DNA of 64,000 nucleotides, from contig JAYFMW010000017.1 of the NCBI GenBank assembly GCA_042408215.1, positions 32,001 to 96,000 on the forward strand. Direction: 5' to 3'. A program made the position numbers and the translations under genes. Shown piece after piece: positions 36,123-56,129 of the stretch. This stretch comes from Microcoleus sp. GTDB lineage: Bacteria > Cyanobacteriota > Cyanobacteriia > Cyanobacteriales > Microcoleaceae. The number at the start of each line of letters is the position of its first letter. The stretch's first letter is position 1. Below the pieces are notes generated by a model. That model was not told the origin of the DNA. It searched no databases and worked only from the letters and a program-made list of their open reading frames with translations.

Positions 36123-37481
36123 TTGAACTTTATGCAAACAATATTAACCAACTTGTTTTTGGCAAATTCTCTGTCGGCCGCACTGGGCTGCAACGAGCCG
36201 GAGTTACTACTAAACGCTGTTTTTGAATCGCTGACGGGACTGGCATATTTCGCGATCGCACTATCTTTAGTCTATTTTGTTCGCAAAGGCTCTCACAACA
36301 AGATTTGGCTGCTATTGGCCGTTGTCTTGTTTGTCTGTAGCACAGCTCAAGTTGCGAAAGTTTGGATGCTTTGGCATCCAATTTATTGGCTGTTGGGATA
36401 TGTCAAAGCGACAATTGCTTTGATGTCTTTGTTAGCAGCTACAATTGCGATCGCCCAAATCAACAAAGCACTAGCAGAATCAAGTTTAGAGCTGGAAAAA
36501 AATCTTCAACAATTGCTAGAAGAAAGCCCGCAGGGAGAGGAATTGGATTGCATCCAGCAACCGGAATTGGCTCAGGATTCGATCGATATTTCTGAATCTG
36601 ACACTATTGTCGATCGCACTGCGGAGATCAATTCGCTTAACGAACAGTTACAAAAGGAAATTGCCGCTCGCCAGCGGGCCGAGGAAAAGTTGCAACTGAC
36701 TCAGTTTGCGATCGATCGATCGGCGGATGCAGTATTCTGGATCGGGTCGGATGCTAAGTTTTTATACGTCAACAATGCAGCTTGCTCTTCTTTGGGATAT
36801 TCTGCGGCAGAATTGCTCTCGATGAACGTACACGACATCAATCCAGAATTTCCAGAAACTGCTTGGAATCTGCACTGGAATGTGTTAAAAAGGTGCGGTT
36901 CAGTTAAGATTGAAGTTCACCACATCACTAAGTACGGTAGGATTTTTCCGGTAGAAATTACGCTCAATCATTTGAAATTTAACGGCCAAGAATATCAGTG
37001 CGTGTTTGCTCGCGATATTAGCGCTCGGAAACGGATTGAAGCCACTTTCCTAGCAAGGGAACAAGAGTTTAGGTCATTAGTTTCTAATATTCCCGGTGCT
37101 GTTTATCGTTGTAGCCCGGAAGGTCGATATGCTCTGACTTTTATCAGCAGCGACATAGAAGTTATTGCCGGCTATCCTGCTACTAATTTTCTGCTCAAAC
37201 CAGTGCAGGATTTTGCTAGTATTGTTCATCCAGATGACCGAGATTTCATCAATAAAATGATCGCGAGTTCAGTGAAAGCAAAACAACCTTACATGATTGA
37301 ATATCGCCTGATACACTTGGACGGAAATGTCAGGTGGGTAGCAGAGAAAGGTCAAGCTATTTTCGGCGAATCCGGGCAAGTTTTATCGCTCAACGGTGCC
37401 ATTTTTGACATAACTGAACGCAAGGAATCTGAGGATGCTTTGCGGCTTTCAGAGGCGATCGCCAACAACAGAGCTCAGTAG
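36123..37481 (+). pseudogene. Membrane-anchored PAS-domain sensor, truncated before the kinase domain
   Basis: Three TM helices resembling an ethylene-receptor-like domain, two PAS/PAC domains; frame continues RAQ*L*IAL; no HisKA/HATPase. Confidence 0.65.
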
Positions 37482-37590: not shown

Positions 37591-38430
37591 TTAACTGTGA
37601 AACGGAATAGTTACTAAAGGCAAAAGCGTTAAAACCAGCCAACTCCAAAACCACTTATTCGGTTTTGGCGACGTTTCCGGTTCTGCTAACAGCGCCTCTA
37701 TTCTCTCTCCCAATCTATTTGGCAACCCGACAGCACCAACCACGCAAGCTATCTCAAAATAGTGGTGCGGATAACTCGCTACCAACAGCAAAGCTTCTGC
37801 TAATAATAAAGAATCTACACCCGCCGCAGCTTTGGCATCAGCCCGCAATTCCCGCAGTGTTAATAACTCTTCCCACAAAGCCTGGGTATTCGGTAGCCAA
37901 GCTGTGATTTGCCGCAGCAATCCCAGCCCAAAAAAACCGAAGGTATCGCGATAATAGTAGTGCGCTTGCTCGTGGGCAATAACGGCTTCAATGTGTACTT
38001 GATCCAAGGTTTTTAACAACCCCGTACTGACTACAAATTCTGGATGCCAAAAGCCAATTAGAGCAGAAAATAAAGCGGGTGTCTCCATAATTCTGACGGT
38101 GGTTCCGGCTATTTTTTGCTGAGGATAATTGCGAATTTTATTGAGAAATAAACTACCGTCTACCGCTAGCTTGATGCCGGAAAATACTGCTTTTCCTAAA
38201 AAGGCTGCGGCTAGCAAATAGCTCAACCATCCGTCCCACAATCCTACCATTTGTCCTTTAGTTCCCATGCTAAAAACTGCGGCGGATGTTACGAGCAATA
38301 GCAGCGGAGGAAATAGAAATAATAAGAGCGATCGCTGCCAGCGTTGGGCCCAATTTCCTGTAGGATGAGACCAGGTGAGTCTGAGATAGTAACCGAGACT
38401 TAGTGCAACTATAATTAGGATTAAGTGCAT
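37591..38430 (-). CDS. petP: M56/BlaR1-type membrane metalloprotease (PetP-like)
   Basis: AVIAHEQAH (HExxH), RELRAD, TM segments; coupled to a BlaI/CopY gene. Confidence 0.8.
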   Translation of the reverse strand: MHLILIIVALSLGYYLRLTWSHPTGNWAQRWQRSLLLFLFPPLLLLVTSAAVFSMGTKGQMVGLWDGWLSYLLAAAFLGKAVFSGIKLAVDGSLFLNKIRNYPQQKIAGTTVRIMETPALFSALIGFWHPEFVVSTGLLKTLDQVHIEAVIAHEQAHYYYRDTFGFFGLGLLRQITAWLPNTQALWEELLTLRELRADAKAAAGVDSLLLAEALLLVASYPHHYFEIACVVGAVGLPNRLGERIEALLAEPETSPKPNKWFWSWLVLTLLPLVTIPFHS

Positions 38431-38858
38431 TATTTTTGCTCCTCCCTAGCTTGGCGGACAGCTTGAATGCGAAGGGAAATTTCTTCTAATTGTTCGACGG
38501 TTGCTTGGTCAAGACTGTCAGCAAATCCTGCTACAATATCGGGGTTTCCTACTGCTAGGAATTTCTGCAAGCGATCGTAAGCAAAAAGTGCTTGAGCTTG
38601 TGGGCGAGAAACTAATGGTTGCCAAGTGAAAGTCCGCTCTGTTTTGTCGCAAGCTAGCCAACCTTTGTCTGTCAAGCGACGCAGCACTGTTGTGACTGAG
38701 GCGTAAGCTAATTCGCGATCGGGATCTGACAAAATGCGATCGTGTACTTCTTTAACTGTAGCACAGCTTAGTTCCCAAACAATATTCAAAATCTCTGCCT
38801 CCAAAGGGCCGAGAGAAAGTTGTTTCGGACGATAATTTGGTAGAGGGTTCATAGGCAA
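38430..38858 (-). CDS. petR: BlaI/MecI/CopY family transcriptional regulator (PetR-like)
   Basis: LSLGPLEAEIL.IVW...ATVKEVHDRIL.DPDRELAYASVTTVLRRL..KGWL. Confidence 0.85.
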   Translation of the reverse strand: MPMNPLPNYRPKQLSLGPLEAEILNIVWELSCATVKEVHDRILSDPDRELAYASVTTVLRRLTDKGWLACDKTERTFTWQPLVSRPQAQALFAYDRLQKFLAVGNPDIVAGFADSLDQATVEQLEEISLRIQAVRQAREEQK

Positions 38859-39003
38859 TTAACAATTCAAAATGTGATTTTTCCTTCAAATATTAATTGA
38901 CTTTATACTCCATCGCCAATTCTCTACTTTAGAGTACAGCCATTCTGGATCGCTCCGTGTTTATTTTAGAAATATTTAATCTAAATCATCCAAATATCAA
39001 GTT

Positions 39004-39023
39004 TGACAGTCTGTCATTTGACA
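39004..39023 (+). promoter_or_regulatory. Palindromic operator (GAC-N5-GTC) abutting a TTGACA -35 box upstream of mbnP
   Basis: TGACAGTCTGTCATTTGACA; 18/20 identical to the minus-strand site at 56089-56108. Confidence 0.7.
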
Positions 39024-39103
39024 GGAGCAGCACCTCAGTGTCAGAATCTAGATTTTGTGAGTAATTTTTGGATGATTGACTTCATTTCATCTCAGATTAA
39101 CCT

Positions 39104-40075
39104 ATGTTCAAAAAACAACTATTATTAGCGTCAACTACCGCTGCTGGCATTGCTGTTTTGAGCGGCTATCTGGGAATTGCCCGGAATCAAGCTCAAGCGG
39201 CAGAAACTCAAGAAGTCGATCTAAAATTTAGCGGTCAAGTAGGCGACAAACCCTTTAATTGTGGCGAAAGCTACAGCAATTTAGGTATGGCAGCTACTAC
39301 AGTTACGCCCACCGACTTTCGGTTTTATGTATCTGAAATTGCCTTAATTGATGCTAATGGCAAAGCAGTACCCGTAACTCTCAAACAAGACGGAAAGTGG
39401 CAGCATCAAAATGTTGCTTTGCTGGATTTTGAGAATAAATCTAGTGCTTGTGCAAATGGGACAGTAGAAATTCGCGATCGCATTCTCGGCACTATACCCA
39501 AAGGCAACTACAAAGGCTTACAATTCACCCTCGGCGTACCCTTCAATCTCAATCACAAAGACGCCACACTCGCACCTTCTCCCCTGAATTTAACATCTCT
39601 GTGGTGGAACTGGCGCGGCGGCTACAAATTTCTGCGGATCGACATGAAAAATCCAAGTAAAAGCACAATGCCTGGAAGCCACAGTCAGGGCGATCGCATT
39701 CAGGAAACTGCTAGCACAAAACCCGAACAACACAGTCCTGAAAACAACCAAAATCACGGCTATACAGCAGGTTTTGTCATTCATTTAGGCAGCACCGGAT
39801 GCACAGCCGGAGACAAAAATCAGCAACCAAATAGCTGTACAAATCATCACAAAGCAAAAGTTGTTTTCAATAACTTTGACCCAGCCCAAAATACAGTAGT
39901 TGCCGACATCAAATCCCTGGTAGCTAATAGCAATTTGGCAATAAATCAACCGAATACTCCTCCCGGTTGTATGTCAGACCCCAAGGATAGTGATTGTGCT
40001 GGGATTATGAATAATTTAGGTTTGCCATTTGATGGAAAAGTTGCGGGTAAACAGACTTTTTTCAAAGTTAAATAA
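39104..40075 (+). CDS. mbnP: MbnP family copper-binding protein (metallo-mystery pair, Cys-motif protein)
   Basis: Signal peptide, DFRFYVS, LLDFE, FTLGVPF.LNH, WWNWRGGYKF (WxW), HLGSTGC, GCMS. Confidence 0.88.
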   Translation: MFKKQLLLASTTAAGIAVLSGYLGIARNQAQAAETQEVDLKFSGQVGDKPFNCGESYSNLGMAATTVTPTDFRFYVSEIALIDANGKAVPVTLKQDGKWQHQNVALLDFENKSSACANGTVEIRDRILGTIPKGNYKGLQFTLGVPFNLNHKDATLAPSPLNLTSLWWNWRGGYKFLRIDMKNPSKSTMPGSHSQGDRIQETASTKPEQHSPENNQNHGYTAGFVIHLGSTGCTAGDKNQQPNSCTNHHKAKVVFNNFDPAQNTVVADIKSLVANSNLAINQPNTPPGCMSDPKDSDCAGIMNNLGLPFDGKVAGKQTFFKVK

Positions 40076-40307
40076 CCGCTCCGGGGCAGGGCTGTTTCAT
40101 TCTGAGGAAAACGAGGATTTTGTAGGGGTAGTGCTACCCCTACTCCCCGTACCCCCCCACCAACCTTCGAATGGGCGTTTGGGCCATCGGGGCACCACGG
40201 GGGGGTTTGCCCCTAGAAAGAATGAAACAGCCCTGCGCTCCGGGGCGGGTTCGCCAATAACCTTGAAGATGGCAGATAATTTAAATAAACCCGCCCCCAC
40301 ACCACAA

Positions 40308-41486
40308 ATGAAATTGAGTCGCTTATTCACCTTTACTATGATTTGCATTTTGTCATGTTTTTTGGCGATCGCCCTGACTCAACTTTTAGGGCAGGAAAAA
40401 AGTGCGATCGCCACTCCCCCACCTCAAACCTACAACTGGAATATCCCCCCTTGGATGCCGAAACCAATTGTACCAGCCGACAACCCAATGAACAACGAAA
40501 AAATCGAATTGGGACGGCATCTTTTCTACGAAAAACGCTTGTCAATTACAGGAGAATTTTCCTGTGCATCCTGTCACATTCAAGCCAAAGCTTTTACAGA
40601 CGGTAAAACAGTAGGAGTCGGCGCAACCGGAGAAAAACACCCGCGAAATGCCATGAGTTTAACCAATATTGGCTACAATTCAGTGCTGACTTGGGCAAAT
40701 CCGTTAATGGCTAAACTAGAATTTCAAGCCTTAGTTCCCATGTTTGGCGAACACCCAGTCGAGATGGGAATGGTAGGAAAAGAACAGGAAATTATCGCAA
40801 TGTTTGGACAAGATGCGCGATACAAAAAAATGTTTATCGCAGCTTTTGGTGACGGCGAAAACGCTATTAGCATCAGCAACATCATGAAAGCCATAGCAGC
40901 ATTTGAACGCACTCTAATTTCCGTCAATTCTCCCTACGATCGCTATCGCTACGGCGGCGACAAGAACGCTATCTCAGCGTCAGCTAAGCGGGGCGAAGAA
41001 TTATTTAATAGCGAACGCTTAGAATGCTTCCACTGTCACGGTGGCATGAATTTTTCAGATTCAATTATGCACGATCGCTTAGCTTTTAAAGAAATTGCTT
41101 TTCACAATACTGGACTGTATAATATAGATGGCAAGGGCGCTTATCCGCCAAACAACACTGGGGTTTACGAGGTTACTGGCGAACCATCAGATATGGGAAA
41201 ATTCAAAGCACCGACTTTACGAAATATTGCCTTAACAGCACCTTATATGCACGACGGAAGTATCAAGACTTTGTCAGAAGTTATCGGTCACTATAAAGCA
41301 GGTGGCAGAACTATTAAAAAAGGAGAATTTGCCGGAGTAGGGAGCGAAAACCCACTCAAAAGTAATTTTGTTTCTGGCTTTAAATTGACGGTACAAGAAC
41401 AACGGGATTTGCTGGCTTTCCTGAAAAGTTTAACAGAGGTAGAATTTATCAACAACCCCGCTTTTCGAGACCCAACTTTACCCTAG
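40308..41486 (+). CDS. mbnH: MbnH family di-heme enzyme (MauG/CCP superfamily)
   Basis: Two CxxCH (CASCH, CFHCH), LGRHLFYE.RLS, FKAPTLRNIALTAPYMHDGS; directly after mbnP; start moved to ATG 40308 because the upstream extension is palindromic repeat DNA. Confidence 0.88.
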   Translation: MKLSRLFTFTMICILSCFLAIALTQLLGQEKSAIATPPPQTYNWNIPPWMPKPIVPADNPMNNEKIELGRHLFYEKRLSITGEFSCASCHIQAKAFTDGKTVGVGATGEKHPRNAMSLTNIGYNSVLTWANPLMAKLEFQALVPMFGEHPVEMGMVGKEQEIIAMFGQDARYKKMFIAAFGDGENAISISNIMKAIAAFERTLISVNSPYDRYRYGGDKNAISASAKRGEELFNSERLECFHCHGGMNFSDSIMHDRLAFKEIAFHNTGLYNIDGKGAYPPNNTGVYEVTGEPSDMGKFKAPTLRNIALTAPYMHDGSIKTLSEVIGHYKAGGRTIKKGEFAGVGSENPLKSNFVSGFKLTVQEQRDLLAFLKSLTEVEFINNPAFRDPTLP

Positions 41487-44400
41487 TTCCAAATGGGAAA
41501 TCGGCAACTCGATCGCAAACTTAGTCCCCTCACCAGGGGTAGAAAAACACCGCAAATTACCCCGATGATTTTCCGTCACAATTTGATAGCTAGTTGCTAA
41601 CCCCATACCCGTACCTTTCCCCACTGGTTTAGTAGTAAAAAATGGATTAAATATTTGTTCTTGCACCTCTGAATTCATCCCACAACCATTATCCTGAATC
41701 GAGACGATCACCTGATTTTCAGAAGTAATAGAAGTCGTAATCGTAATCCCACCAATATAATCTAATTCTTCGGTAGGGACACGGCATTGCCGTGTCCCTA
41801 GGCTTAATCGCCGTTGTTCGATCGCATCAATAGCATTGATTAACAAATTCAGAAACACCTGATTTAATAAACCACAATAACACTCAACCAGGGGTAATTT
41901 TCCATAATTTTTGGTGAGATGAATCTCTGGTTCTCCCGCCCGACCATGCAAGCGATTTTGTAAAATAACTAAGGTACTATCGATATTTTCGTGAAGATCT
42001 ATTTCTTTTAATCCCGCTTCATCTAGGCGCGAAAATGTCCGCAGAGACTTAACAATATCTCTGATGCGTGTGGCTCCAGTTTTCATGGATTTTAGCAACT
42101 TAGAAAAATCACTTACTAGATACTCAAAGTCAATATCTTCTGTAAAATCAGAAATCGCCTGCGGTGGACTCGGAGCGTGCTTTTGGTAGAGTCGAATTAA
42201 CTCAATTAAATCATTAACATAATTGGTGGCGGGTTGAATATTGCCATAAATGAAACTTATGGGGTTATTAATTTCATGGGCAATACCGGCCACTAATTGC
42301 CCCAAACTTGACATTTTTTCGGCTTGAATTAACTGAGTTTGGGTATTTTGCAACTTTTTGAGGGTTGCTTCTAATTTTTCAGATTGCAGCCGCAGTTGAA
42401 TTTCAGATTGACGGACTGTTTCCGCCTGTATCCTATCCATTTCAGCACCAGCACGAGTGGCAAAGATTTTCAAGATAGCTGACTGCATTTCTAGATTTTT
42501 TTCCATCGGCTTAGTGTCTAAAACTGCCAGCAATCCCAAATGATTACCAGCAGCATCTATAATCGGCAAACCAGCATAACTTTCGGCTTGGAGGGCGACT
42601 AAATCATCATCTTCAGGAAAAAGAGACTGAACCGAATTTGGGTATAGGCAGAACTCTGTTTGACTATTCTCACAGGGTGCACCTATTAAGTTATAGGTAA
42701 AGTTATCGCCAAAGTCGTCTCCTGCCCAAAATGCTAGGGTGGTCGCAATCGATTTTTCTGGGTTCACAAATTCAGCGATTAAAGCATAACGAACTCCTAA
42801 GACTTGGGCGAGATATTGGACGCAACTTTTGAAGAAGTCTGCACCAGTTTTAGCCGCCGTACCTTCGACTATTAAACGGAGAGCTTGTTCTTGACGTTTG
42901 CGATCGCTGATATCAGTTATAGTGCCAACATATCCTTCTATTTCGCCTTCGCTGTCAATCAGAGGTAAGGCTTGACCAATCACCCAAGCGACACTGCTAT
43001 CGGGACGCAGGAAGCGATACTCAGATTGAAATTGTTGTTTGATTAAGGCGCTTTCATACCATTCTTGAAAAACCCGCTCTCGGTCTTCAGGATGGAGCGT
43101 TTGCGCCCAATCTGGCCCCAGAGCTTCTTCTCTAGTTAAGCCTGTAGTTTGCAACCAAGTTTGATTGACATAGAGGCAGTCACCCTTGGCATCAGTTAAA
43201 AACACGCCAATCGGTGATGCTTCTGCTAGGGTTTGATAGCGTTTTTGGCTTTGTTGGAGTAGGATTTCGGCTTGTTTGCGATCGCTAATATCAAAGTTAA
43301 CCCCAATCATCTTTTGCGGATTGCCCTCTGCGTCGCGCCGAACTATACCGAATGCTTTAATGAAATGGATACTGCCATCAGGATGAACAACACGAAATTC
43401 TGGATTGAATTCTGTTTCTCCCAAAACAGTTTGGCGGATTAATGTTTCGGAGGCATTTCGATCATCAGGATGTAGCCCCTGGCTCCAAATTTCGTAAGCT
43501 AATCTGGAATCGGAGTTTTTGGTGATGCCATATAGCTCGTACATCCGATCGTCCCAAACAAGGGTGTTATCTACGATGTCCCATTCCCAACAGCCCATTG
43601 CCCCAGATTTGAGTGACAGTGACAAACGTTCAGATATTTCGTTCAGTTGGGTTTCGGCTTGTTTGCGATCGGTAATATCCATCGCCGTGCCAAACAAACG
43701 GAAGTTTTTTCCATTTTGCTGTTCGATTTCGATGCGACTATTGATATAGTGGATAGCACCATCCGAGCGCAAGATCCGCAGGTCAAAGTTTTGGGGAATT
43801 CCCTGCTCGCTTGCTGCTTTAACACAACTTACAAATAATTCCCGATCGTCTGGATGATATTGTTTTATATGGTCGTCAAACTCTGGTTCTCCCTGTGAGG
43901 GATGCATACCAAAAATCCGAAATAACTCGGCAGACCAGGTAATTTTTTGCGTGGCTAGGTCAAAAGACCAATTGCCAATGCGGGCAACTCGTTGTGCTTC
44001 TTCCAGTTGTCGAGTAAGTTCCTGTTGGGCGATGTCGGCTGCTTTGCGATCGCTAATATCGCTATGGGTGCCAATCAACCGCAAAGGTTGACCTTCTTTG
44101 TCCCTTTCAGTCACCTGAGCGCGAGCTAAAATCCACTTGTAAGAACCATCTTTACAACGCAGGCGATGTTCGTTGTCATAAGTAGATGTTTCGCCCTTTA
44201 GGTGTTTGCTAACAAGTTCATAGCATCGAGCTTTATCCTCTGGATGTACCAGACTATCCCACCCTTCTAAAGCATTGGCAATTTCATGCTCTGCGTAGCC
44301 CAGCATCGCTTTCCACTGCCGAGAAAAGATCGCTTCATTAGTTTTGAGGTTCCAATCCCAAGTGCCATCTCCGGCACTTTCTATGGCCAACTGCCAGCGG

Positions 44401-45809
44401 CTATTACTTTCCTGCAAAGCGATTTCTATGGCTTTACTTTCTGTGATATCCCGAATGATTGTAGAAAAGTATTCCACTTTTCCATCTGTTGATTTGTGAG
44501 CTAAGATTACCTGAGAAACAGGCATTTCACGTCCTGTCTGAGGATCTAGTATTGCCGTCTCGCCCTGCCAACTGCCAGAACGTGCCGCTTCCGGCAAACC
44601 CTGATTTAATAAAATATCTAAAGCCCACTCTGGATGAGCTTTAGAGATTTCCATATCTGCGATCGCTGCTTCATTATTATCGAGCAAATTTCGCCAAGCT
44701 TGATTGAGGTAAAAAGTTTTACCCGTCAAATCAGCCGTTGCGATCAAATCTGACGTGGTTTCCAGAATGGCAAGCAGACGTTGATTGTCAGCTTCAGCAC
44801 GTTTGCTGTCTGTGATATCCCGAATATAGCCATGCCAAATGGTACTGCCATCGGGTTTTCGCTGAGGTGTAGAATTACCTAACAACCAAAGCAATCGCCC
44901 ATCGGGTAAACAAACTTGATATTCGCAATACCAAGGGGTAAGATGTTCGGCGGAATCGAGAATGGATTGACAGACGCGATCGAGATCATCCGGGTGAATA
45001 ACACTAAAAATCTTAGCAGCATCCTCCCGCACTTCTTCTGGGGAAACGCCAGAAATCTCTCGCAACCTTTCGCTGGAGTATGGAAAATGAGAAGTACCAT
45101 CAGGACGCATCCGAAACTGATAAATAATGCCGGGGATGTGGCTGGCAATTTGCTTTAGGCGATGATCCTCTGTGGGGGTAGCTGGGCTCACAGGTTCAAT
45201 GCCAGCCTCCCGTAATTGAGCTTGGGTTTGTTCGAGTTGGCGGGTAAGTTCTTGGACTTTTACCTCTGCTCGTTTGCGCTCTGTAATATCTCGCATTATT
45301 GATAGATGGCGGTGAGGCAGAAAGTTTGCCGTCGCTGCATATTCCACTACGCGAATCTCCCCATCGGGCCGCACTAACTGGAACTCACCCCGCAGTTTTT
45401 CTGTAGCACTTACGCATGGGGCCCCAGAAACCGGGTTTTTTACTGAATCTGCGGGCTGCAATGCGTCTTTTCGTAAAAAAAACCCGGTTTCTTTGGTCAG
45501 ACTGCGTAAGTCCTGTTCTGGTTGTTGAAATTCTTGCCACACCTGTTGAAAATTAAATCCAGGCTCAGTAAAATCACTAATGCAGCATCCGAGGAGTTCA
45601 TCTTTCTCTAGTCCAAATAATTCACAGGCGGCGGGGTTGACGTCGAGATATCGCCCTTCGTCATCGGCGATCGCGATCGCATCTAGGGCCATTTCAAAAA
45701 CAGTCCGTAATTGTCTGTCTCTCAGGGATAGCAAAGTGCGATCGTCTTCAGATCTATCATCGTCTAAGGATGGGCACATAAATTGTAACGTGGGAAGTAA
45801 AAAATTCAA
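41478..45809 (-). CDS. Multi-PAS/PAC + GAF sensor histidine kinase
   Basis: Several PAS/PAC repeats, GIAHEINNP, NQVFLNLLINAIDA, DNG.G, GKGTGMGL. Confidence 0.95.
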   Translation of the reverse strand: MNFLLPTLQFMCPSLDDDRSEDDRTLLSLRDRQLRTVFEMALDAIAIADDEGRYLDVNPAACELFGLEKDELLGCCISDFTEPGFNFQQVWQEFQQPEQDLRSLTKETGFFLRKDALQPADSVKNPVSGAPCVSATEKLRGEFQLVRPDGEIRVVEYAATANFLPHRHLSIMRDITERKRAEVKVQELTRQLEQTQAQLREAGIEPVSPATPTEDHRLKQIASHIPGIIYQFRMRPDGTSHFPYSSERLREISGVSPEEVREDAAKIFSVIHPDDLDRVCQSILDSAEHLTPWYCEYQVCLPDGRLLWLLGNSTPQRKPDGSTIWHGYIRDITDSKRAEADNQRLLAILETTSDLIATADLTGKTFYLNQAWRNLLDNNEAAIADMEISKAHPEWALDILLNQGLPEAARSGSWQGETAILDPQTGREMPVSQVILAHKSTDGKVEYFSTIIRDITESKAIEIALQESNSRWQLAIESAGDGTWDWNLKTNEAIFSRQWKAMLGYAEHEIANALEGWDSLVHPEDKARCYELVSKHLKGETSTYDNEHRLRCKDGSYKWILARAQVTERDKEGQPLRLIGTHSDISDRKAADIAQQELTRQLEEAQRVARIGNWSFDLATQKITWSAELFRIFGMHPSQGEPEFDDHIKQYHPDDRELFVSCVKAASEQGIPQNFDLRILRSDGAIHYINSRIEIEQQNGKNFRLFGTAMDITDRKQAETQLNEISERLSLSLKSGAMGCWEWDIVDNTLVWDDRMYELYGITKNSDSRLAYEIWSQGLHPDDRNASETLIRQTVLGETEFNPEFRVVHPDGSIHFIKAFGIVRRDAEGNPQKMIGVNFDISDRKQAEILLQQSQKRYQTLAEASPIGVFLTDAKGDCLYVNQTWLQTTGLTREEALGPDWAQTLHPEDRERVFQEWYESALIKQQFQSEYRFLRPDSSVAWVIGQALPLIDSEGEIEGYVGTITDISDRKRQEQALRLIVEGTAAKTGADFFKSCVQYLAQVLGVRYALIAEFVNPEKSIATTLAFWAGDDFGDNFTYNLIGAPCENSQTEFCLYPNSVQSLFPEDDDLVALQAESYAGLPIIDAAGNHLGLLAVLDTKPMEKNLEMQSAILKIFATRAGAEMDRIQAETVRQSEIQLRLQSEKLEATLKKLQNTQTQLIQAEKMSSLGQLVAGIAHEINNPISFIYGNIQPATNYVNDLIELIRLYQKHAPSPPQAISDFTEDIDFEYLVSDFSKLLKSMKTGATRIRDIVKSLRTFSRLDEAGLKEIDLHENIDSTLVILQNRLHGRAGEPEIHLTKNYGKLPLVECYCGLLNQVFLNLLINAIDAIEQRRLSLGTRQCRVPTEELDYIGGITITTSITSENQVIVSIQDNGCGMNSEVQEQIFNPFFTTKPVGKGTGMGLATSYQIVTENHRGNLRCFSTPGEGTKFAIELPISHLELG

Positions 45810-45841
45810 TTTTCAAGAAACATCAAAACACTAGGTATAAA

Positions 45842-48800
45842 TTACCAAGCTAATGATCGACATGGAATTGAAATCGTAAATTCTGTACCTCGACCTAAAG
45901 TTGAGTTCACTTCTAGCATACCACAGTGTTTCTCAACTACAATCTGCCGTGCGATCGCCAATCCCAACCCCGTACCTTTACCTACACCCTTGGTAGTAAA
46001 TAATTCATCAAAAATCTGCTCCCGCACTGCCTCACTCATCCCCACACCATTGTCTTTGATCCGAATCATCGCTTGTTTTTTATCCCCATCAAATTCGGTT
46101 TTGATAGTAATTTGATTGGCGATTTGTGCATAAGATAGTCCTTGATTTGATTCATCCAAAGCATCGATCGCATTTGCCAACAGATTCATAAACACCTGAT
46201 TCAACTGTCCAGCATAGCACTCTACCTGTGGCAAATTACCGTATTCCCTAATCACTTGGATTTCTGGACGAGTTTCATTAGCCTTGAGGCGGTGCTTGAG
46301 AATCATAATGGTGCTATCGATGCCTTCGTGGATATTGCAAGCTACAGGATGGTCTGTGTCGGCACGGGAGAAGGTCCGTAGACTGGTACTGATATCCCGA
46401 ATCCGCTTCACGCCTTCCCGCATCGAACTCACTAACTTCGGTAAGTCTTCTCGAATGTAGTCAAGATCGATGTTCTCGATTTCCTCTTGAATCTCTGGAT
46501 CTGGTTGGGGATATTTTTGTTGATACAAATCGAGCAATCCAAACAAATCATTGATGTAATCTAAGGCAGGGGTAATATTACCAGTCAGAAAGCCAACAGG
46601 GTTATTAATTTCGTGAGCAACTCCAGCCACTAGATTCCCCAATGCTGACATCTTTTCACTTTGAACTATTTTGAGTTGTGCTTGTTTTAGATTGGTTAAT
46701 GATTGTTGTGCTGCTTGATAAAGACGGGCATTTTCTAAGGAAATAGCAGCTTGAGAAGCCAGCATATTTAGCACTTCAATGCGTCCGCTCGTAAACGCAC
46801 CCACTGTCAGATTATTTTCCAAGTATAAAACTCCAATCAATAATCCTTGATTCAGAATGGGACTACAAAGAACACTTATCGGCTGGTTTTTTTTGATGTA
46901 AATATCGCCGGCAAAATGGGGATCTACCCTCGCATCAACTAATACTAAAGGTTTCAAATTCCGCTTGACAGTATTCACCAAATTAATCGGCACATCCCAG
47001 CTTGATTCTAGGGGAATTGATGGTAATAGTTGCGGTAATTTTCCCTCTTCTACAAGAGCTACTACTTTTAACTCAAGATCTTGTTTGAGGAGTAAGACAC
47101 ACTTATCGGCTCCAGCATTAGCAATTACTATTTTTAGGAGAGTAGTTAGGAGTTGATCGAGTTCAATTTCCCCAGAAATCGCTTGAGAGGCTTTGAGCAA
47201 AGTTGCCAAATCTAGTGCTTCAGAGATGCTGGTAGAGGTGTGAGTAGAAGTAATCGTTCCCCGTGCGATCGTTTCCTTGAAGGAGTCAGCAGCGTGAGGT
47301 TGTTGCAGGATGGGTGCGAGGAGTTGAGGATAACATTTTTCTAAATCGTCTACTTTAGCCTTAGCTCCCCAATGAGCATAGCAGTAGTAGGCTTCTTGCA
47401 TATATCCGGCGGCAATTTTCTCTTTGCCACATTTGAGGTAGAATTTAGCTGCTAGTTCATTGGCGAGGGCTTCTTCTTGAATAAAGCTATTTTCTTTAGC
47501 TCCAGAAATGGCGCGATCGTAGAGGTCGATCGCCTCTGCTTTCTGACCTAAAATTCGCTGCATTTCAGCCCGAATCAAATCGCATTTGTGGGCAAAGTTC
47601 ATGGGTGCATGATTTGCCCAGTTAGTAAGCTGCTCAAGATCCTTAGTAACCGCTTCACTAATTGGTAAGGTGTTCGTGTTTGCGAGGAGCGTGAGTGCAT
47701 GATAGAAATAAAAGACTCCATAGAAAACAGTTCCGATAATGCCACCAATCGTTTTCTCGGCAATTTGAGCCATTTCCAGAGTTTCCTGGGGTTGCCCAAA
47801 ATGGTAAGCCAGAATCAATTTATGACTATAGAAGCTCCCGATCGAATAACTATCTCCTGCTAATTGATGCTGAGGTAATCGCGTCGTTTCATCGTAAGCT
47901 GTTCCAACGAGTTTCTGAGGATCATCTGCTTTACCCGTCCAATTTAAGACTGCCTGTTCCACAATTTGGTGAAAGTTCAGAGCTGTTGTTTGTTTGAGTT
48001 GCGCGATCGCAAGAGCATAGGTTTGCATCTCTTGCCGGAGTTGTAGAAGTTCATTTCCCGCAGCATAAGCGAGTTGACAGCGGTTATAGGCACAGTAAGC
48101 CGCGAACTCCAAATCTCCCGTTTCCAAACCCGCTTGATAGCCTTCCAGCAAAGGCATCAATACAGTGTGAATTGGCTGCTGCCAAATGCGAACAAACGGA
48201 TAAACTAAATTAAAAATTTTCGCTTTAAAACTCGATGCTTTAAATGTTTCCATCAAGGCGATCGCAATATCGGCAGCGCGATTTCCGGCGACAATTTCAC
48301 CGCCAAATGCACAAAGAATCAGTCCATAGGTTGAATAGGCATAGGGTGTTTGGATGGCATTGCCAAACTGAAGTGACAACTCAATTTGTTTCAGCACAAT
48401 TAATGGATAAAGTGCTGGCGAACCGATATAGGCTGCTGAAGCCTGGGTGCTAAGAATATTCATTGCAGCCAGCTTCTCTGGATCGCTCATTCTGGGTGAA
48501 TTTATGACATTCTCTATCGTCAGTCGATCGCCAATAGCATCGAGAGCAGGGGCTACCATGTCTTGGGTAGGATGTTCTGGTAACTCAACATCCAACTGCT
48601 TAAGGATTTCCCTCGCGACATGAATCGCCTCTGATAATTGATTACGAGCAATCAAAGATTGAATCTTTATTTCTAAGGCTTTGACTTGTTCTAGGGGGTC
48701 TGACCTATGCTGGAGAACTGCCTCGATGCAAGCATCTACCCGCTCAAATTTGCCAATCAAACAGGCTGAATTAGCCCCTTCAATGTGCAGATTTAAAGTA

Positions 48801-51323
48801 AGAATGGGCTGTCGCTTCCATTCACCAGAATTGTCAGTGGCTAAAAGTTGCAGCCCTATTTCACAGTATTGAGCTGATGCTGGGTAAGCAGCCGAAAGCC
48901 GCGCTTTACGCCCAGCTATAAGATTGAGGTTTGCTAGATAGTCTCGCTGCTTCTGTAATACAATGCGATCGATGCCCAGATTAAATTGACTGACAAGGGC
49001 AAAAATTCTCTCATCCAGTTGCTCTGGTGAAGTGCGATCGAGCAGCAATTGCCCAATGTGCAAATGGACGGCTGGCTTTTTGGTCTTCAGGAATCAGGGA
49101 ATAGGCGGCTTGCTGAACGCGATCGTGCAAAAAATTATACGTGGCATTGATAGCGGTTTGATGCGTCGATATTATGTCAGTCTGAGTAAAGAACTTATAG
49201 ATATCAGAAATAGGCAGAATAAAGCCTTCTTGCAATGCCTTCCATAGATCGCCCGCTGTTGCTTCTAGGGATTTTTCTGAAACAATCGCCAGCGTATTCA
49301 AATCAAACTGTGCCCCAATACAAGCGGCTAATTTGAGAACATCCTGAGTTTCTCTGGGCAACTTCTGCAATTGCAATGCCATGAATTTCACGACATCATC
49401 GGTGATCGCCAAAGATTTTACTTTGGCAATATCGCACTGCCACCCCCCTTGACTTCCCCCCTTACCAAGGGGGGACTGAGGGGGGTAAAAGCTAATTAGC
49501 TGATCGTCATGTAATGCCTTGAGAAACTGAGTTGCAAAGAAAGGATTTCCCTGAGTTTTTTGAGATACTAATTTTGTCAAAGGTTGTGCAAGGGATGATT
49601 CGCAATTCAGCGTATCCGCCACCAACAAATTCAGTTCTGCTTCGCTTAACGGTGACAAAGTAATTGTATTCACCGTTCCCCCAGTTTTGAGAATCTCATC
49701 CACTGTCAACATAAATGGATGTACAGGGGAGACTTCGTTATCTCGATAAGCACCTAATATCAATAAATGTCCATTATCTTGCATCAACAGTTTTAGCAAA
49801 TTCAGTGAGGCTGAATCTGACCATTGCAAGTCATCCAAAAAAATCACTAAAGGATGTTCTTTACTGGTGAAAACTTGCACAAACTTTTGAAACAACAAAT
49901 TAAAGCGATTTTGGGCGGCACTTCCTGACAATTCTGTTGCAGCAGGCTGTTTACCGATGATGTTTTCTAACTCAGGAATCACGTCAATCAAGACTTGTCC
50001 ATTGTCTCCCACTGCTGTTAAAATCTGGTGTTTCCAGGTTTGCAGTTCTGTATCCGATTCTGATAATAATTGCCCGATTAAGTCGCGGAAGGCTTGAACA
50101 AATGCCGAAAAGGGAATATTTCGCTGAAATTGGTCATATTTGCCTTTGATAAAATAACCGCGCTGACGAAGAATTGGTTTATGAACTTCATTGACCACTG
50201 CTGTTTTGCCAATGCCAGAAAAACCCGCCACTAGCATCATTTCACTACCGGACAAATGCGATACCTCCCCGCCCCCCTTAATCAGGGGGGAGTCTTCTAA
50301 AGCCCCCCTTATTAAGGGGGGTTGGGGGGATCGTCCTGATGCAACTCGTTCAAAGGCAGCTAATAGGTGAGCAACTTCTTTTTCTCTACCGTAGAGTTTT
50401 TCGGGGATGGTAAAGCGATCGCTAATATCTCGCTTTCCAAGTTCAAAAGGTTCTATTTTGCCTGTTTTTTGTAACTGTTCTAAACAAATCTCTAAATCCT
50501 GCTTCAGTCCTAATACACTCTGATAGCGATTTTCGGCATTCTTCGCCATCAGTTTAATGACAATTTGTGATAAAATTATGGGGATTTCTGGATTAATTTG
50601 AGAGAGCGGTATCGACTGTTTGGCGAGATGACAATGCACCAATTCCATTGGGTCATCTGAGACGAAGGGTAACTGTCCTGTCAACAATTCATAGAAGGTA
50701 ACACCGAGGGAATAAAAGTCACTCCGGTAGTCAATGCCGCGATTCATTCTTCCGGTTTGTTCTGGGGAGAGATAGGCTAATGTTCCTTCTAAGATATTGG
50801 GATTCTGGATTTCTTGGGTTTCTCTCGGCAGTAGTGAGGCGATACTGAAGTCTATTAATTTGACTTGTTTTGTTTCTGGATTAATTAAAATATTGGCTGG
50901 TTTGATGTCTTTATGAATGACTCGGTTTTGGTAGAGATAGTCGAGAATGTCAGCCAGTTGCAGAGCTAGGTTAAGAAATTCTTTTAAAGATAAAAAGTTA
51001 GAGGGTTGCTTTTCATTTGTTTCTGCTTTAAGATAAGTACATAGGGAGACTCCGCTAAAGTTTTCCATGACTAGGGCATAGCTATTGCCGTAGACTTCTA
51101 GACTTAGGGGTTTGATAATGCTGGGGATGTCGAGATTTTTGGCAATGGTATATTGGTTGCGGAATTGGACGAGTTCGTTGAAGTTGGGGTACTTGTTCCG
51201 CAGTATTTTGATGACGACTGGGTATTGGTCACTGGTACGGATGCCTCGATAGACGAGGGTGCGTGTACCTGCGTAAAGTTGCTCTGTTATTTGATAACCG
51301 GATAAATTGGCGATCGCATCCAT
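45842..51323 (-). pseudogene. Trifunctional Ser/Thr kinase-AAA ATPase-GAF-histidine kinase, split by a single-base frameshift
   Basis: ORF 49011..51323 ([22 protein letters not shown]) and ORF 45842..49063 (GAF, AHEINNP) join by removing one base of the T-run at 49077-49081; could be a sequencing error. Confidence 0.85.
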
Positions 51324-51539
51324 AACTCGTTGCTCCTCTATTAGACAATAGTTAAATTAAAACATTCCATTTCATTCTATTGTATTTTATTGTGCTATGT
51401 ATAGTACGAACGCGTAAGTTGTGATGGTATCAGAAAACAATAATCTCTAATTTTTCACCGCAGATGCACAAAAATATACGCAGATCAGAGCTACTCTATA
51501 TCTGCGTATATTTGCGTATATCTGCGGTTTTATTCTGCT

Positions 51540-52553
51540 TTATTCCCCGTAGTGGCCCCCAGCAACTTTACCCCGAAACACAACATAATTGTAGATGTTG
51601 TAGAAAATCATAATCGGGATGAGAAAGCCAATGAACACAATCATAAATACCAGGGCGCTGGGCGAAGCTGCGGCTTGGTAAATCGTGACTTGCGAGGGAA
51701 TAATGTAGGGAAAAACAATCAATCCCAAGCCGATGAAAGTGAGCAAGAAAATCAAAATTGTCCAGACAAACGGCGTGCGTTCTTCTTTGCGATCGAGACT
51801 TCTAAGCAACAGTCCAATTAACAGCACTCCCAGCAAAGGAATCGCAGCAAAGACATAAACTAGCGGTTTCTCGAACAACCTGGATCTAGCACTTTCGTAA
51901 AAAATCGGAGTGGCGATCGTAATTAAGATTGCTCCAATTAACGTCGTCACCGCCGCAATTTTAGCCGTGCGATAGTGAGTTGTCTGTAGTTCCCCCTGAG
52001 TCTTCATAATCAGATAGGTTGAACCAATCAAAACGTAACCTTGAACTAGCGTCAAAGCCACCAATATAGATCGCCAATCCAGCCAATCCCAAGTAGTACC
52101 GACAAAGTGACCAGTTGCATCAACAGCAATACCTTCGAGTACGGCACCGAGGGCTAAACCTTGAGCTAAAGCTGCCAAGAAACTGCCGGCACCAAAGGCA
52201 TAATTCCAAAATAATTTGCGGTTGGAATGCTCGCGAAACTCAAATGCTACTGCCCGAAAAATCAAGCCAAAAAGCATCATCATAATCGGGATATACAAGG
52301 CAGTTAAAATTGTGCCATAAGCGAGGGGAAATGCGCCAAACAAAGCGCCTCCCATCAACACTAACCAAGTTTCGTTAGCATCCCAAACATTGCCCAAACT
52401 CGTCATTAAAATGCCCCTGCGTTCGTCGTCTGAGGCAGTCAGAGACAGGATTCCTACGCCTAAGTCAAAACCGTCTAGCATGACGTAGAGCAATAGAAAC
52501 AAAGCCAAAACTACAAACCAAACTTGCGGGAGAAAATGCTCCAAAGCTTGCAT
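51540..52553 (-). CDS. cydB: Cytochrome bd ubiquinol oxidase subunit II
   Basis: LDGFDLGVG, WDANETWLV, RAVAFEFR, VFRGKV. Confidence 0.96.
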   Translation of the reverse strand: MQALEHFLPQVWFVVLALFLLLYVMLDGFDLGVGILSLTASDDERRGILMTSLGNVWDANETWLVLMGGALFGAFPLAYGTILTALYIPIMMMLFGLIFRAVAFEFREHSNRKLFWNYAFGAGSFLAALAQGLALGAVLEGIAVDATGHFVGTTWDWLDWRSILVALTLVQGYVLIGSTYLIMKTQGELQTTHYRTAKIAAVTTLIGAILITIATPIFYESARSRLFEKPLVYVFAAIPLLGVLLIGLLLRSLDRKEERTPFVWTILIFLLTFIGLGLIVFPYIIPSQVTIYQAAASPSALVFMIVFIGFLIPIMIFYNIYNYVVFRGKVAGGHYGE

Positions 52554-52561
52554 AAAATCTC

Positions 52562-54004
52562 CTATTGTTGTGCTTCTGCGGGACGGCGATCGGGAATGTG
52601 TTCTGCGGGTTCTGTTTCGATTGCAGGTAGATTGTCTAAACCAGGCACCGGCAGATTTAAATTAGGGCCTTTGCGGATAATGCGGCTGCCAAAATACAAG
52701 GCACAAAAAAACAAAAAGCTGTAAACAACTGCAAAGAAACTGAGAGAAGTTAAAACATTGCTAGCGGGGATGTTTGACACCGCGTCAGCCGTGCGAATTT
52801 GCCCGTATAAAACCCAGGGCTGTCTGCCGACACAGCGCACAATCCAACCCGATTCTACAGCAATATATCCCAGTGGCGCTGCTAATATCCAAGCGCGCAT
52901 CAGCCAAGTTTGTTGAGCAATATTTTCAGCAGAAAGTTTGCCTCGCATCCACTGAATTATACTAAATAACATCAATCCTACAAAGAAGAATCCAATGCCG
53001 GACATGATGCGGAAAGAATAGTAGATTAAACTGACCATTCTGGGTCGATCTTCTGGTTTCCATTCTTTTAATCCGAGGACTGGTTCGGAGAGTTTTTGTT
53101 TGAATTCTAGAACGTATCCTAAGCCATTAGGTACGGTGATTTCCCAGTCGTTTTTTTGGGCTTTTTCATTAGGTAAAGCCATTAAAGTCCAATCGGCTGA
53201 ACTTCCCGCTGGGGAGGTTTCCCATTTAGCTTCGATTGCTGCTAATTTGGTCGGCTGATAGTGATAGACTTGTTCGGCGCTCAAATGTCCGATGAATATC
53301 TGCAAAGGTGCAACTGCGATCGCCGTCGCTATGGCAATCTTTAAAGACTTGGAAAAAAAGGCTTCGTTGCGCTTATTAAGAATGTACCAAGCGCTAATTC
53401 CGCCAATGACAAATAGCGAGGTTTCCCATGTTGCAAAAAACATATGGAGAATGCTCTTTAATGCAAACGGGTTCATAATTGCTTGAAAGTAGTCGGTGAC
53501 AATAAACTTGCCATTGACCATTTCTCCGCCGGCGGGAGTTTGCAGCCAAGAGTTAGCGACTAGAATCCAGACGGTTGATAGGTTTGCGCCGAAGGCTACC
53601 ATGATTGTAGCGAAATAATGGACGATCGGGTGAACGCGGCCCCAACCGAAGAGCATAATTCCTAAAAAGCCGGCTTCTAGCATAAATGCCATTGAAGCTT
53701 CAAACCCTAAAATGCTGCCAAAAAAGTCACCAACTGCTTCAGAAAATGGTGCCCAGTTTGTGCCGAATTGAAATTCCATTGGAATGCCGGAAGCTACCCC
53801 AATGCCGAAGTTTAGGACATAGAGTTTAGACCAAAAACGAGCGTGGCGGTAATAGTCAGGATTGCGAGTTTTCAGCCACATTCCTTCAATAATTACCAGA
53901 TAAATTCCCATTCCAGTAGTCAAAACTGGCCAGAGCATATGGAATATGGCGGTTAGCGCAAATTGCATCCGCGATAGGGCGACGGTGTTAGATAATAAAT
54001 CCAT
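52562..54004 (-). CDS. cydA: Cytochrome bd ubiquinol oxidase subunit I
   Basis: RMQFALTAIFH, EFQFGTNW, QPTKLAAIE, GRQPW. Confidence 0.97.
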   Translation of the reverse strand: MDLLSNTVALSRMQFALTAIFHMLWPVLTTGMGIYLVIIEGMWLKTRNPDYYRHARFWSKLYVLNFGIGVASGIPMEFQFGTNWAPFSEAVGDFFGSILGFEASMAFMLEAGFLGIMLFGWGRVHPIVHYFATIMVAFGANLSTVWILVANSWLQTPAGGEMVNGKFIVTDYFQAIMNPFALKSILHMFFATWETSLFVIGGISAWYILNKRNEAFFSKSLKIAIATAIAVAPLQIFIGHLSAEQVYHYQPTKLAAIEAKWETSPAGSSADWTLMALPNEKAQKNDWEITVPNGLGYVLEFKQKLSEPVLGLKEWKPEDRPRMVSLIYYSFRIMSGIGFFFVGLMLFSIIQWMRGKLSAENIAQQTWLMRAWILAAPLGYIAVESGWIVRCVGRQPWVLYGQIRTADAVSNIPASNVLTSLSFFAVVYSFLFFCALYFGSRIIRKGPNLNLPVPGLDNLPAIETEPAEHIPDRRPAEAQQ

Positions 54005-54338
54005 GTTTTGTATCCTTTAGTCAGTTCAAGAGATGTTTGTTTGCACGAGTTCAAGAATTGACACTGGTTATAATATAATGTAAAAATTCGTGACAATTTG
54101 TAGCTCAAGCAACTTTTAAGGTTTTATACAGATTTGGGTTGTATCGGAATGATTTAACCGCAGAGAACGCAGAGAACGCAGAGAAAGAGAAGAGAGAGAC
54201 GAATACAGGACGATGAAGAGCGGATATGATATTACCTAACTTTGGGTGGGGGCGGGTTTACGAGATTGTGGATTTTAGGTAATTATTGTTTGTGGAACCC
54301 GCCCCTACAAGATTTATGTTTATTGACGGGAGATGATA

Positions 54339-54812
54339 TTATCGAACGGTGACTGTATAAGTCAGTTTAAAGGGTTTAAAATTAGCTGCGGTTTTCGCTG
54401 TTCCGCTGAGTTCTAATTCATAAATGCCAGCCTTGGGAAAGACAATATCAGCTCCCGGAATGCCTTTGTACCGCTCGGCAGATATTGCTTTTAAAGGCGG
54501 TTCCATCAGCGCTGTATCCCCCTCTTTATAACCTTTGGGATAGACCGCTAACTTGCAATTACACTGCTCTAATGGGATAATTTGACCGCCCCTGCGGGTG
54601 AGTGAAAACCAGACTCTCGCAGTCTCTCCGGCGCGGGGATTGTGATTGGGTTCTAGGTGAAAGGTGGCGGCGACATCTCCCGATACTTCGACTTCGTGGG
54701 CTAAAACTGAAGTTGAGTTGAACGGCGGTATGGGAAATATTCCTGCTTCTATTAGCAATCCCAAGAAAACTAACAATCCTAAACTTTTACTTTTGTTTGA
54801 CTGGGGAAACAT
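54339..54812 (-). CDS. Exported protein with predicted mature N-terminal His (putative metal-binding)
   Basis: Signal ending VLA|HEVEVSGDV, FHLEPNHNP, FPKAGIYEL; start ATG 54812 overlaps the upstream gene. Confidence 0.7.
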   Translation of the reverse strand: MFPQSNKSKSLGLLVFLGLLIEAGIFPIPPFNSTSVLAHEVEVSGDVAATFHLEPNHNPRAGETARVWFSLTRRGGQIIPLEQCNCKLAVYPKGYKEGDTALMEPPLKAISAERYKGIPGADIVFPKAGIYELELSGTAKTAANFKPFKLTYTVTVR

Positions 54813-55992
54813 AGAAATTATCCAGAGATAAAAGTGACCAAAATAAGCGCGATCGCACAAACATAACTAACAGCGTAACCACCGCTAACAGGGCTGTCAG
54901 CAGTTGATTGTGCAATTTCCATTCAAAACCGCCGAGATAGCGAGAACCGATGAGTGCAGTGTGAAGGTTGCACAGCAAAAAAGCGGGAACACTTAACAGG
55001 TGAATTTGCCGCCACCGCTTCCCTAAATATTCTTGAAGGCGATCGCAACTTGTAACCGCCGCCGGTATCATCAACAGTAGCGCCACTATCCCAGCTATCA
55101 TCCCTAACTGATGCTGCGGCAACATAAAAGATAGGGCGTCAAAATTCCATTGCAGTGTATGATCTAGCATATGAAATGTGTGGGCAAGGGCGATCGCAAA
55201 CCCTCCGACACCCAAAGCCCGACGGTAGCGCAGCAGTTGCGGGAAAAACTGACTAACCGGACGCGCGATCAGTGCTAGCATCAAGCATAGTAGGGATGCG
55301 TGACCAGTCACATCAACCATTTCATCGGTTCGCAGTAGAGTAATAATGCCGATCGCAATTGTCACCCAACCACCAGCGCGAAAAAGTTGACTGCGTTTGT
55401 GGGCGCTCAATCTACCAGCAAAAAACCCCACTCCCAGCATAGTTGGCAGCGTACCCATTCCAAATGCAAACATCGTTGCGGCACCCAAAATCGGGTTTCC
55501 GGTTTCCGCTGCTTTAATTTGCGCTACATACAGGAAACCGCAGGGAATTAAACCCCAAAGCAAACCCAAAGCTGCTGGTATCCACCAACTTTTTTGAGTT
55601 GAAATCTTAGTCATTGCATTGCTGATGCGATCGTGGGAAACTGGATGCAGCAATGGCAAACGCGGCAACAAATCTGGTTGAATTTGTACCAATCCAAACC
55701 AAACCAGCATCGTACCAATCAGAATAGCGATCGCCCGTCGCCATCCGCTACCAGTACCAGCCATTTGTCCGCCAGCAATTAATACCGAACCCACTCCGCC
55801 AATTACAGCACCTACTAAAGCATAAGCAACAATTCTTCCCAAGTTTAGTAGCAAATGAAAGCGGAAAGAAGCTAATTTATCTTTACCCGCAGCCGACAGG
55901 GAAAACGCCACTGTCAGCGGGCCGCACATTCCCGCGCAGTGTCCGAAACTGCCGAGAAATCCTAAAGTGCTAATTAATACTAAGTCTAGCAT
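54787..55992 (-). CDS. DsbD_2/TauE-like Cys-motif membrane protein fused to a ferric-reductase-like TM domain
   Basis: GSFGHCAGMCGPL, GLIPCGFLY; C-terminal RRALGV...H...VTS....LG..W..IH. Confidence 0.85.
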   Translation of the reverse strand: MLDLVLISTLGFLGSFGHCAGMCGPLTVAFSLSAAGKDKLASFRFHLLLNLGRIVAYALVGAVIGGVGSVLIAGGQMAGTGSGWRRAIAILIGTMLVWFGLVQIQPDLLPRLPLLHPVSHDRISNAMTKISTQKSWWIPAALGLLWGLIPCGFLYVAQIKAAETGNPILGAATMFAFGMGTLPTMLGVGFFAGRLSAHKRSQLFRAGGWVTIAIGIITLLRTDEMVDVTGHASLLCLMLALIARPVSQFFPQLLRYRRALGVGGFAIALAHTFHMLDHTLQWNFDALSFMLPQHQLGMIAGIVALLLMIPAAVTSCDRLQEYLGKRWRQIHLLSVPAFLLCNLHTALIGSRYLGGFEWKLHNQLLTALLAVVTLLVMFVRSRLFWSLLSLDNFYVSPVKQK

Positions 55993-56088
55993 TTTGAGTT
56001 AGTAGTCAGCAGTCATTAGTCCTTGGTTTTTTTACTGCCGATCGATGATTAATGATTGCTGACTATAATGACTGTCGGCTATCCTTTT

Positions 56089-56108
56089 TGTCAAAAGACA
56101 GCCTGTCA
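56089..56108 (-). promoter_or_regulatory. Palindromic operator plus TTGACA upstream of the DsbD_2-like gene
   Basis: Minus strand TGACAGGCTGTCTTTTGACA, 18/20 to the mbnP upstream site. Confidence 0.7.
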
Positions 56109-56129
56109 TATCAAATCCGTTGACATCGG

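Follow-up and report, generated by a model that had tools for sequence, protein, structure and literature searches.

The 64,000-nucleotide stretch analysed here (the window; positions 32,001 to 96,000 of contig JAYFMW010000017.1 from a Microcoleus sp.) carries the regulator and protease genes petR and petP, the gene pair mbnP–mbnH (mbnPH) and, farther along, an operon headed by a gene for a DsbD_2–reductase membrane fusion. Our comparisons indicate that PetR probably activates both mbnPH and the DsbD_2–reductase operon under copper scarcity, in a lineage in which no plastocyanin gene was detected. The module likely serves low-copper scavenging and copper sparing, PetR binding and the copper response being predictions from sequence. 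The features are listed in Table 1.

An earlier note on this DNA had drawn attention to two 20-mers (39004 to 39023 on the plus strand and 56089 to 56108 on the minus strand), each with a GAC-N5-GTC palindrome ahead of a TTGACA, and had suggested a PetR site of that kind. A sequence check confirmed both sites and their identity at 18 of 20 positions; the distance to the start codon is 80 bp for mbnP, as given there, and 96 bp rather than about 97 bp for the DsbD_2-like gene. The suggested site matches the published core, and the PetR paper (bioRxiv 10.1101/2020.07.31.226407) describes petJ-type activated promoters as combining GAC-N5-GTC with TTTGAC-N9-TTTGAC, a direct repeat that has the −35 element at its centre. 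The palindrome with its TTGACA stands, with the correction that TTGACA is the second copy of this repeat. The repeat has no mismatch at site 1 and one at site 2, the two best in the genome, and both promoters carry the activator-type site over the −35. GAC-N5-GTC has 904 strand-matches across the genome of 7.36 Mb, and only two of them, the two window sites, continue with NN-TTGAC, so that the 20-mer is not a dispersed repeat and that explanation is rejected. The genome has one further 20-mer that differs from site 2 at no more than two positions; it falls within a gene (C10), on the opposite strand.

A pattern search of 61 genomes gave 33 matches in 24 genomes outside the genus, all of which were extracted, and a scoring matrix was built from 11 petJ promoters of other genera, which account for 12 matches ahead of petJ. 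In the window genome this matrix places site 1 first (37.2 bits) and site 2 second (25.3 bits), with the next site at 18.5 bits; the training sites score 25.1 to 37.5 bits when each is left out in turn, and 12 column-shuffled matrices reach top scores of 16.2 to 24.3 bits. Of 47 distinct mbnP boxes, 41 are followed at 17 to 18 bp by an xAxxxT hexamer (chance, about 19%), and just 12 of these 41 hexamers start with T at −12. Both window sites have the 18-bp spacer and a C at the first hexamer position. A good −35 covered by the box together with a weak −10 is consistent with activation, as at petJ.

The adjacent gene pair had been taken for PetR/PetP, and it proves to consist of single-copy orthologues of that pair. 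The two genes share base 38430, and their products match PF03965 with 98 bits and PF01435 with 29.5 bits. PetR is 57 to 75% identical to nine other cyanobacterial PetRs, a set that does not include the Synechocystis sequence itself, and 61 to 75% identical to the five that adjoin a boxed petJ, which makes it an orthologue of petJ-linked PetR. In PetP, H153, E154, H157, M55 and M61 are invariant in nine of nine sequences, the two methionines probably corresponding to M53 and M58 of the published protein, and no C-terminal penicillin-binding or sensor domain was found. The regulator falls below the CopY/TcrY cut-off (TIGR02698, 38.3 against 121.95 bits) and below those of BlaI (28 against 180 bits) and MecI (21 against 250 bits). 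The pair shares its regulator family (PF03965) and protease family with BlaI/BlaR1 and CopY, but differs from them in scoring under the family cut-offs, in a protease without a penicillin-binding domain and in an activator-type site.

The closest described system is PetR/PetP of Synechocystis sp. PCC 6803 (Slr0240/Slr0241), where, in the accessible text of the same paper (bioRxiv 10.1101/2020.07.31.226407), a BlaI-type gene likewise overlaps an M48/M56 protease gene, and the core, the direct repeat over the −35, the loop methionines and HExxH recur. There PetP degrades PetR in a copper-dependent manner, PetR activates from this site geometry and binds the petJ promoter, and petJ expression needs petR. 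The Synechocystis regulon comprises petE, petJ, slr0601 and slr0602, whereas here only two strong boxes are found, at mbnPH and at the DsbD_2–reductase operon. The latter was considered as a counterpart of slr0601-slr0602 and rejected, since it does not fit the two small proteins that the available text describes. The comparative evidence well supports the window system being a variant of the known PetR/PetP.

The earlier note had read the regulon as an extension of the plastocyanin/cytochrome c6 switch and had expected motif hits at petJ and petE, neither of which is borne out, because petE was not found and petJ is unboxed; of the switch, nothing seems to be left beyond the two boxed promoters. 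Our genus sample comprises 37 Microcoleus genomes, compared with 24 others outside the genus, and the window genome is 99.98% complete. Plastocyanin (TIGR02656) exceeds its cut-off in none of the 37 and in 16 of the 24. The best petE candidate in the window genome scores 34 bits against a cut-off of 87.85, and six plastocyanin queries give a best tblastn E value of 7e-4; a weak cupredoxin on C30 was rejected as plastocyanin for falling under the cut-off. One Microcoleus metagenome-assembled genome is likewise without petE in a table of PMC10812107. The petJ gene is present (167 bits; cut-off, 135) and sits behind psbV-psbV2, where the best score of the region is 0.0 bits, and it is unboxed in 14 of 14 evaluable loci of the family (locus L275 has too little upstream DNA and was left out). 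Hence the switch, with petE and petJ both boxed, was not found in this genome. Five genomes of other genera (G043, G054, G055, G056 and G059; loci L098, L126, L132, L134 and L128) also have petR and no plastocyanin over the cut-off, and in these the box lies ahead of petJ or of genes for a porin, TonB receptors, a PepSY-TM protein or a small GLTT protein.

Within the genus, petR and mbnP occur together: 13 of the 37 genomes have petR (the sub-cut-off PF03965 match of G012 being counted as lacking), and mbnP is found in 12 of these 13 and in none of the other 24. At all 11 evaluable genus loci (L011 and L021 were left out for too little DNA upstream of mbnP) petRP and mbnPH are divergent and box 1 is present, with a varying N5 spacer. 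One petR-bearing genome (L182 in G014, 92% complete) has petRP directly behind cydAB but neither mbnPH nor, over 8 kb, a box, and may represent an intermediate step in the loss.

The pair itself exceeds both family cut-offs, is adjacent, and has the WxW motif in MbnP, where WxW, His227 and Met290 are invariant, and two CxxCH motifs in MbnH, whose start is placed from homologues in an open frame that begins at 40029. It has WxW, the cysteines, the two CxxCH and the order mbnP-mbnH in common with methanobactin producers (PDB IDs 7L6G and 6E1C; accessible parts of PMC3621798 and PMC11951088). Unlike in those organisms, neither MbnB nor a TonB receptor was detected in the window genome, and the pair lies behind a PetR box beside petRP in a cyanobacterium. 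mbnB (TIGR04159) has no match in the genome, which does not fit a methanobactin operon. In a methanotroph, MbnP undergoes MbnH-dependent kynurenine formation and binds copper, as seen in a crystal structure after co-expression (PMC11951088, available text). By analogy, kynurenine formation, copper binding and a role in copper acquisition may be expected of MbnP in this organism. The spacer between mbnP and mbnH (40086 to 40236) holds 18-bp perfect inverted arms 115 bp apart, likely a small mobile or repeat element.

The box is conserved ahead of mbnP across cyanobacteria and ahead of the DsbD_2 gene within the genus. In a 251-genome phylum sample, it precedes mbnP at 12 of 13 loci, the single exception being a genome without petR. 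A wider survey covered the best 80 of 247 mbnP loci in GTDB genomes, of which about 19 are close relatives of the window genome; a box of at least 22 bits lies within 500 bp of mbnP at 56 of 79 evaluable loci and within 5 kb at 65 of 79 (L187 was left out for too little upstream DNA), against none of 73 control stretches. Autoregulation of petRP through box 1 is rejected, because the asymmetric box faces mbnP and accompanies it where petR is not adjacent. In these 80 loci mbnH accompanies mbnP in 78, and a petJ homologue is found in nine, once in the order box-petJ-mbnP-mbnH. Four Nostocales loci read box-mbnP-cydA-cydB-mbnH, and one locus reads box-mbnP-mbnH-DsbD_2 fusion-small protein. No more than 6 kb separates mbnP from cydBA, the small gene and the DsbD_2 gene in seven relatives, and the 10 kb of kinase genes that separate mbnPH from cydBA–DsbD_2 in the window are an insertion. 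The named sequences closest to MbnP come from Microcoleaceae and Microcoleus.

The exact 20-base pattern has 99 matches in 44 of 121 genomes, as against three for the reversed pattern (counts alone). The 33 matches outside the genus include 12 at petJ, four at small GLTT-repeat proteins, three at PepSY-TM genes and two at TonB receptors, and one each at exbBD, an OprB porin, cydA (in another family), a DsbD_2 fusion, a DUF2231-oxidase operon, a His-rich protein, a MetA-pathway barrel, a DsrE protein, a phytochrome and an unknown 509-aa protein; the remaining two fall at the end of a contig and more than 1.2 kb from any gene, respectively. The boxed GLTT-repeat proteins, from four other genomes, are better candidates for slr0601 than the second operon is.

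Further boxes were observed in relatives. At L124 (G057), the operon behind the box encodes an alternative oxidase (DUF2231-DUF2231-ctaC). In two genus genomes, one of them without a detected petR, a box (L142:416, L147:425) precedes a cbb3-type ccoN-ccoO-ccoS operon, and low-copper induction of this copper-requiring oxidase would be unexpected. Four petR-bearing Microcoleus genomes have one or two tandem boxes 370 to 500 bp before a Tab2/Atab2-like gene (L140:405; L141:441 and 489; L148:409 and 459; L150:449), with no long open reading frame between; these are absent from the window genome and are possibly a small RNA or a relic.

The second operon comprises the fusion gene and a 157-aa protein gene, for which the ESM Atlas gave no family, followed by cydA and cydB. 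The earlier note had proposed a weaker PetR site before cydA, which is rejected: the site scores −20.7 bits (−9.9 at best in the spacer), reads TAC-N5-GTC with no second repeat, and is kept in genomes that lack petR. cydA has a conserved upstream element of its own (54060 to 54110, minus strand), with TACA-like repeats at a period of about 10 bp, which we take to be a candidate OmpR/RpaB-type site. On the coding strand, the stretch from the small gene to cydA gave no terminator-like site. Read-through from box 2 is a possible way, and the only one, for PetR to reach cydAB. A TGAC-N5-GTCA palindrome before the cox operon was dropped as a repressor site; the bare core occurs at 3 of 29 loci in unrelated positions, and the genome has 50 copies of the palindrome. 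The genus has two ctaC types, about 56% identical (L291 to L319); the window genome carries the rarer one, and G016 and G018 carry both.

The mechanism might run as follows. With copper, PetP would degrade PetR and without it PetR would accumulate, a Synechocystis result carried over here through the conserved residues. PetR would then bind the box across the −35 and activate a promoter with a −10 that does not begin with the consensus T. MbnH, judging from methanotroph work, may turn a WxW tryptophan of exported MbnP into kynurenine, creating a copper-binding site that catches scarce copper. In the weakest step, the DsbD_2–reductase fusion and its small partner might reduce or pass on the metal, with the one heme-copper oxidase retained in the genome as the likely copper sink. 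The copper-free oxidase encoded by cydAB may be co-induced by read-through.

Several results weigh against this reading. The matrix is not fully independent, because its training pattern derives from the window sites as well as the PetR paper, and one of the 12 shuffled matrices reached 24.3 bits, near the score of site 2. Box 2 reaches at least 25 bits in 11 of the 12 petR-bearing genus genomes that carry the DsbD_2 gene, but also in seven of the 23 without petR, four of these with an intact core, including G025 (100% complete, 6 contigs). These genomes of one genus are kin and not independent, and for that reason no P value is given. Outside the genus, a sense box of at least 25 bits is found at only 2 of 12 DsbD_2-fusion loci. 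In G130 (99% complete), a 29.5-bit box precedes mbnP, with no petR match. Finally, neither a TonB receptor nor MbnB, as a route of copper entry, was found in the window genome.

The main rival, which we consider unlikely, keeps the low-copper activation by PetR and holds that its output, rather than capturing copper, provides heme proteins (cytochrome bd, MbnH) with iron, heme or reductant. It draws on the TonB receptors, exbBD, PepSY-TM proteins and OprB porins among the boxed genes of relatives, families that are often annotated for iron uptake, and on PF13386, by its description a membrane region of cytochrome c biogenesis, which here is fused to a ferric-reductase-like domain. However, the crystal structure reported in PMC11951088 shows copper bound to MbnP that was co-expressed with MbnH, the WxW, His227 and Met290 residues are invariant here, and low-copper induction of a copper-binding protein suits scavenging better.

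A narrower alternative, which seems decidedly unlikely, limits PetR to mbnPH and regards box 2 as a relic kept mainly for its −35 hexamer. The boxes of the seven petR-lacking genomes would fit it, as would degenerate copies that have lost the left half and retain TTTTGACA (G035, G031), the AAGT flank that site 2 has lost to a repeat, and the patchy link outside the genus. Against it, the core is intact in 11 of 12 petR-bearing and in 4 of 23 petR-lacking genomes, and site 2 falls inside the range of true petJ boxes. Where petR is lacking, decayed copies tend to retain their −35 half, which points to a box that the ancestor had and that was lost afterwards. Box 2 is nevertheless less secure than box 1, because of its retention in genomes without petR and its patchiness outside the genus.

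It is very improbable that PetR represses these genes by covering the −35, which would make them copper-induced and give them a buffering or detoxification role. The box does overlap a perfect TTGACA, and the accessible PetR text (bioRxiv 10.1101/2020.07.31.226407) states that BlaI/CopY proteins are otherwise reported as repressors only, but in that text the placement and direct repeat are those of activated petJ, and repressed petE has its site between the −35 and the −10. Copper, moreover, down-regulates MbnP-like methanotroph systems (PMC3621798, available text, stated for MopE/CorA pairs). The same pattern stands at the 11 petJ promoters of relatives. Scarcely credible, finally, is a chance match or another regulator reading the TTTGAC direct repeat, for which the G130 box and the typical use of direct repeats by OmpR-family sites could be cited, given the excess of the exact over the reversed pattern, the lack of petR in the only genome of the phylum sample with a boxless mbnP, and the petR dependence and PetR binding described above for Synechocystis petJ.

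The reading in which PetR activates mbnPH and the DsbD_2–reductase operon has a wider form, toward which we lean only slightly: PetR/PetP would be a general cyanobacterial low-copper regulator beyond the electron-carrier switch, and Microcoleus would have lost plastocyanin, uncoupled petJ and kept PetRP only for methanobactin-free MbnP/MbnH scavenging. The literature searched, with subscription papers mostly outside the search, yielded nothing on mbnPH, cydAB or uptake genes being controlled by PetR. In their accessible parts, the defining paper gives four target genes and stresses the specificity of the system (bioRxiv 10.1101/2020.07.31.226407), a 2023 review states that PetRP has no downstream copper-homeostasis response (PMC10141476), a 2026 review lists petE and petJ only (PMC13421787), these two reviews, PMC12292863 and PMC7896320 name known targets only, and the role of MbnP/H is called unclear (PMC3621798). 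If the wider form is true, the box would mark the missing copper-uptake genes of cyanobacteria, namely those for specific TonB receptors, for porins, for PepSY-TM proteins and for the DsbD_2–reductase fusion. PetRP, with an activator box conserved on genes for MbnP/MbnH, membrane reductase, uptake and oxidases, would then have to be seen as a regulator of copper starvation. Such a box would also place MbnP/MbnH in a physiological context beyond methanotrophs and yield a short, testable list of copper-uptake candidates, the plastocyanin-less genus being a natural separation of the two PetRP roles.

Table 1. Positions of the PetR/PetP-associated features in the window.
Feature	Position	Strand	Remarks
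petP, M48/M56 membrane protease, 279 aa	37591..38430	-	HExxH at 153-157; Met55, Met61 invariant
petR, BlaI/CopY-family regulator	38430..38852	-	stop overlaps petP start; only PF03965 match of the genome
PetR activator-type box 1 (predicted)	38999..39023	+	37.2 bits; right repeat is the -35 TTGACA at 39018-39023
Predicted -10 of the mbnP promoter	39042..39047	+	CAGAAT, 18-bp spacer, TG at 39039-39040
mbnP, WxW copper-binding family protein	39104..40075	+	TIGR04052, 310.5 bits (cut-off 140); 7L6G, E 5.7e-36
mbnH, di-heme enzyme, two CxxCH	40308..41486	+	TIGR04039, 532 bits (cut-off 363); 6E1C, E 3e-121
cydB	51540..52553	-	with cydA, copper-free oxidase
cydA	52562..54004	-	no box of its own; possibly reached via read-through
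Third site of the earlier note, not a PetR box	54092..54102	.	part of the conserved cydA upstream element, found in genomes with and without petR
157-aa protein, hydrophobic N-terminus, no known family	54339..54812	-	overlaps the end of the DsbD_2 gene
DsbD_2 and ferric-reductase-like membrane fusion, 401 aa	54787..55992	-	PF13386, 161.6 bits; PF01794, 39.2 bits; HCAGMCG and PCGFLY motifs
Predicted -10 of the DsbD_2 promoter	56065..56070	-	CATTAT, 18-bp spacer
PetR activator-type box 2 (predicted)	56089..56113	-	25.3 bits; local repeat replaces left flank; -35 TTGACA at 56094-56089

At the RNA level, two metatranscriptome runs gave small shares only, with patchy cover of the contigs. The region 45842 to 51323 (minus strand) encodes a Ser/Thr kinase-AAA-GAF-histidine kinase in two overlapping frames of 770 and 1073 aa, which indicates a frameshift or a sequence error, and the product of 36123 to 37481 (plus strand) has an ethylene-receptor-like N-terminus and PAS domains and ends without a kinase domain, being possibly truncated.

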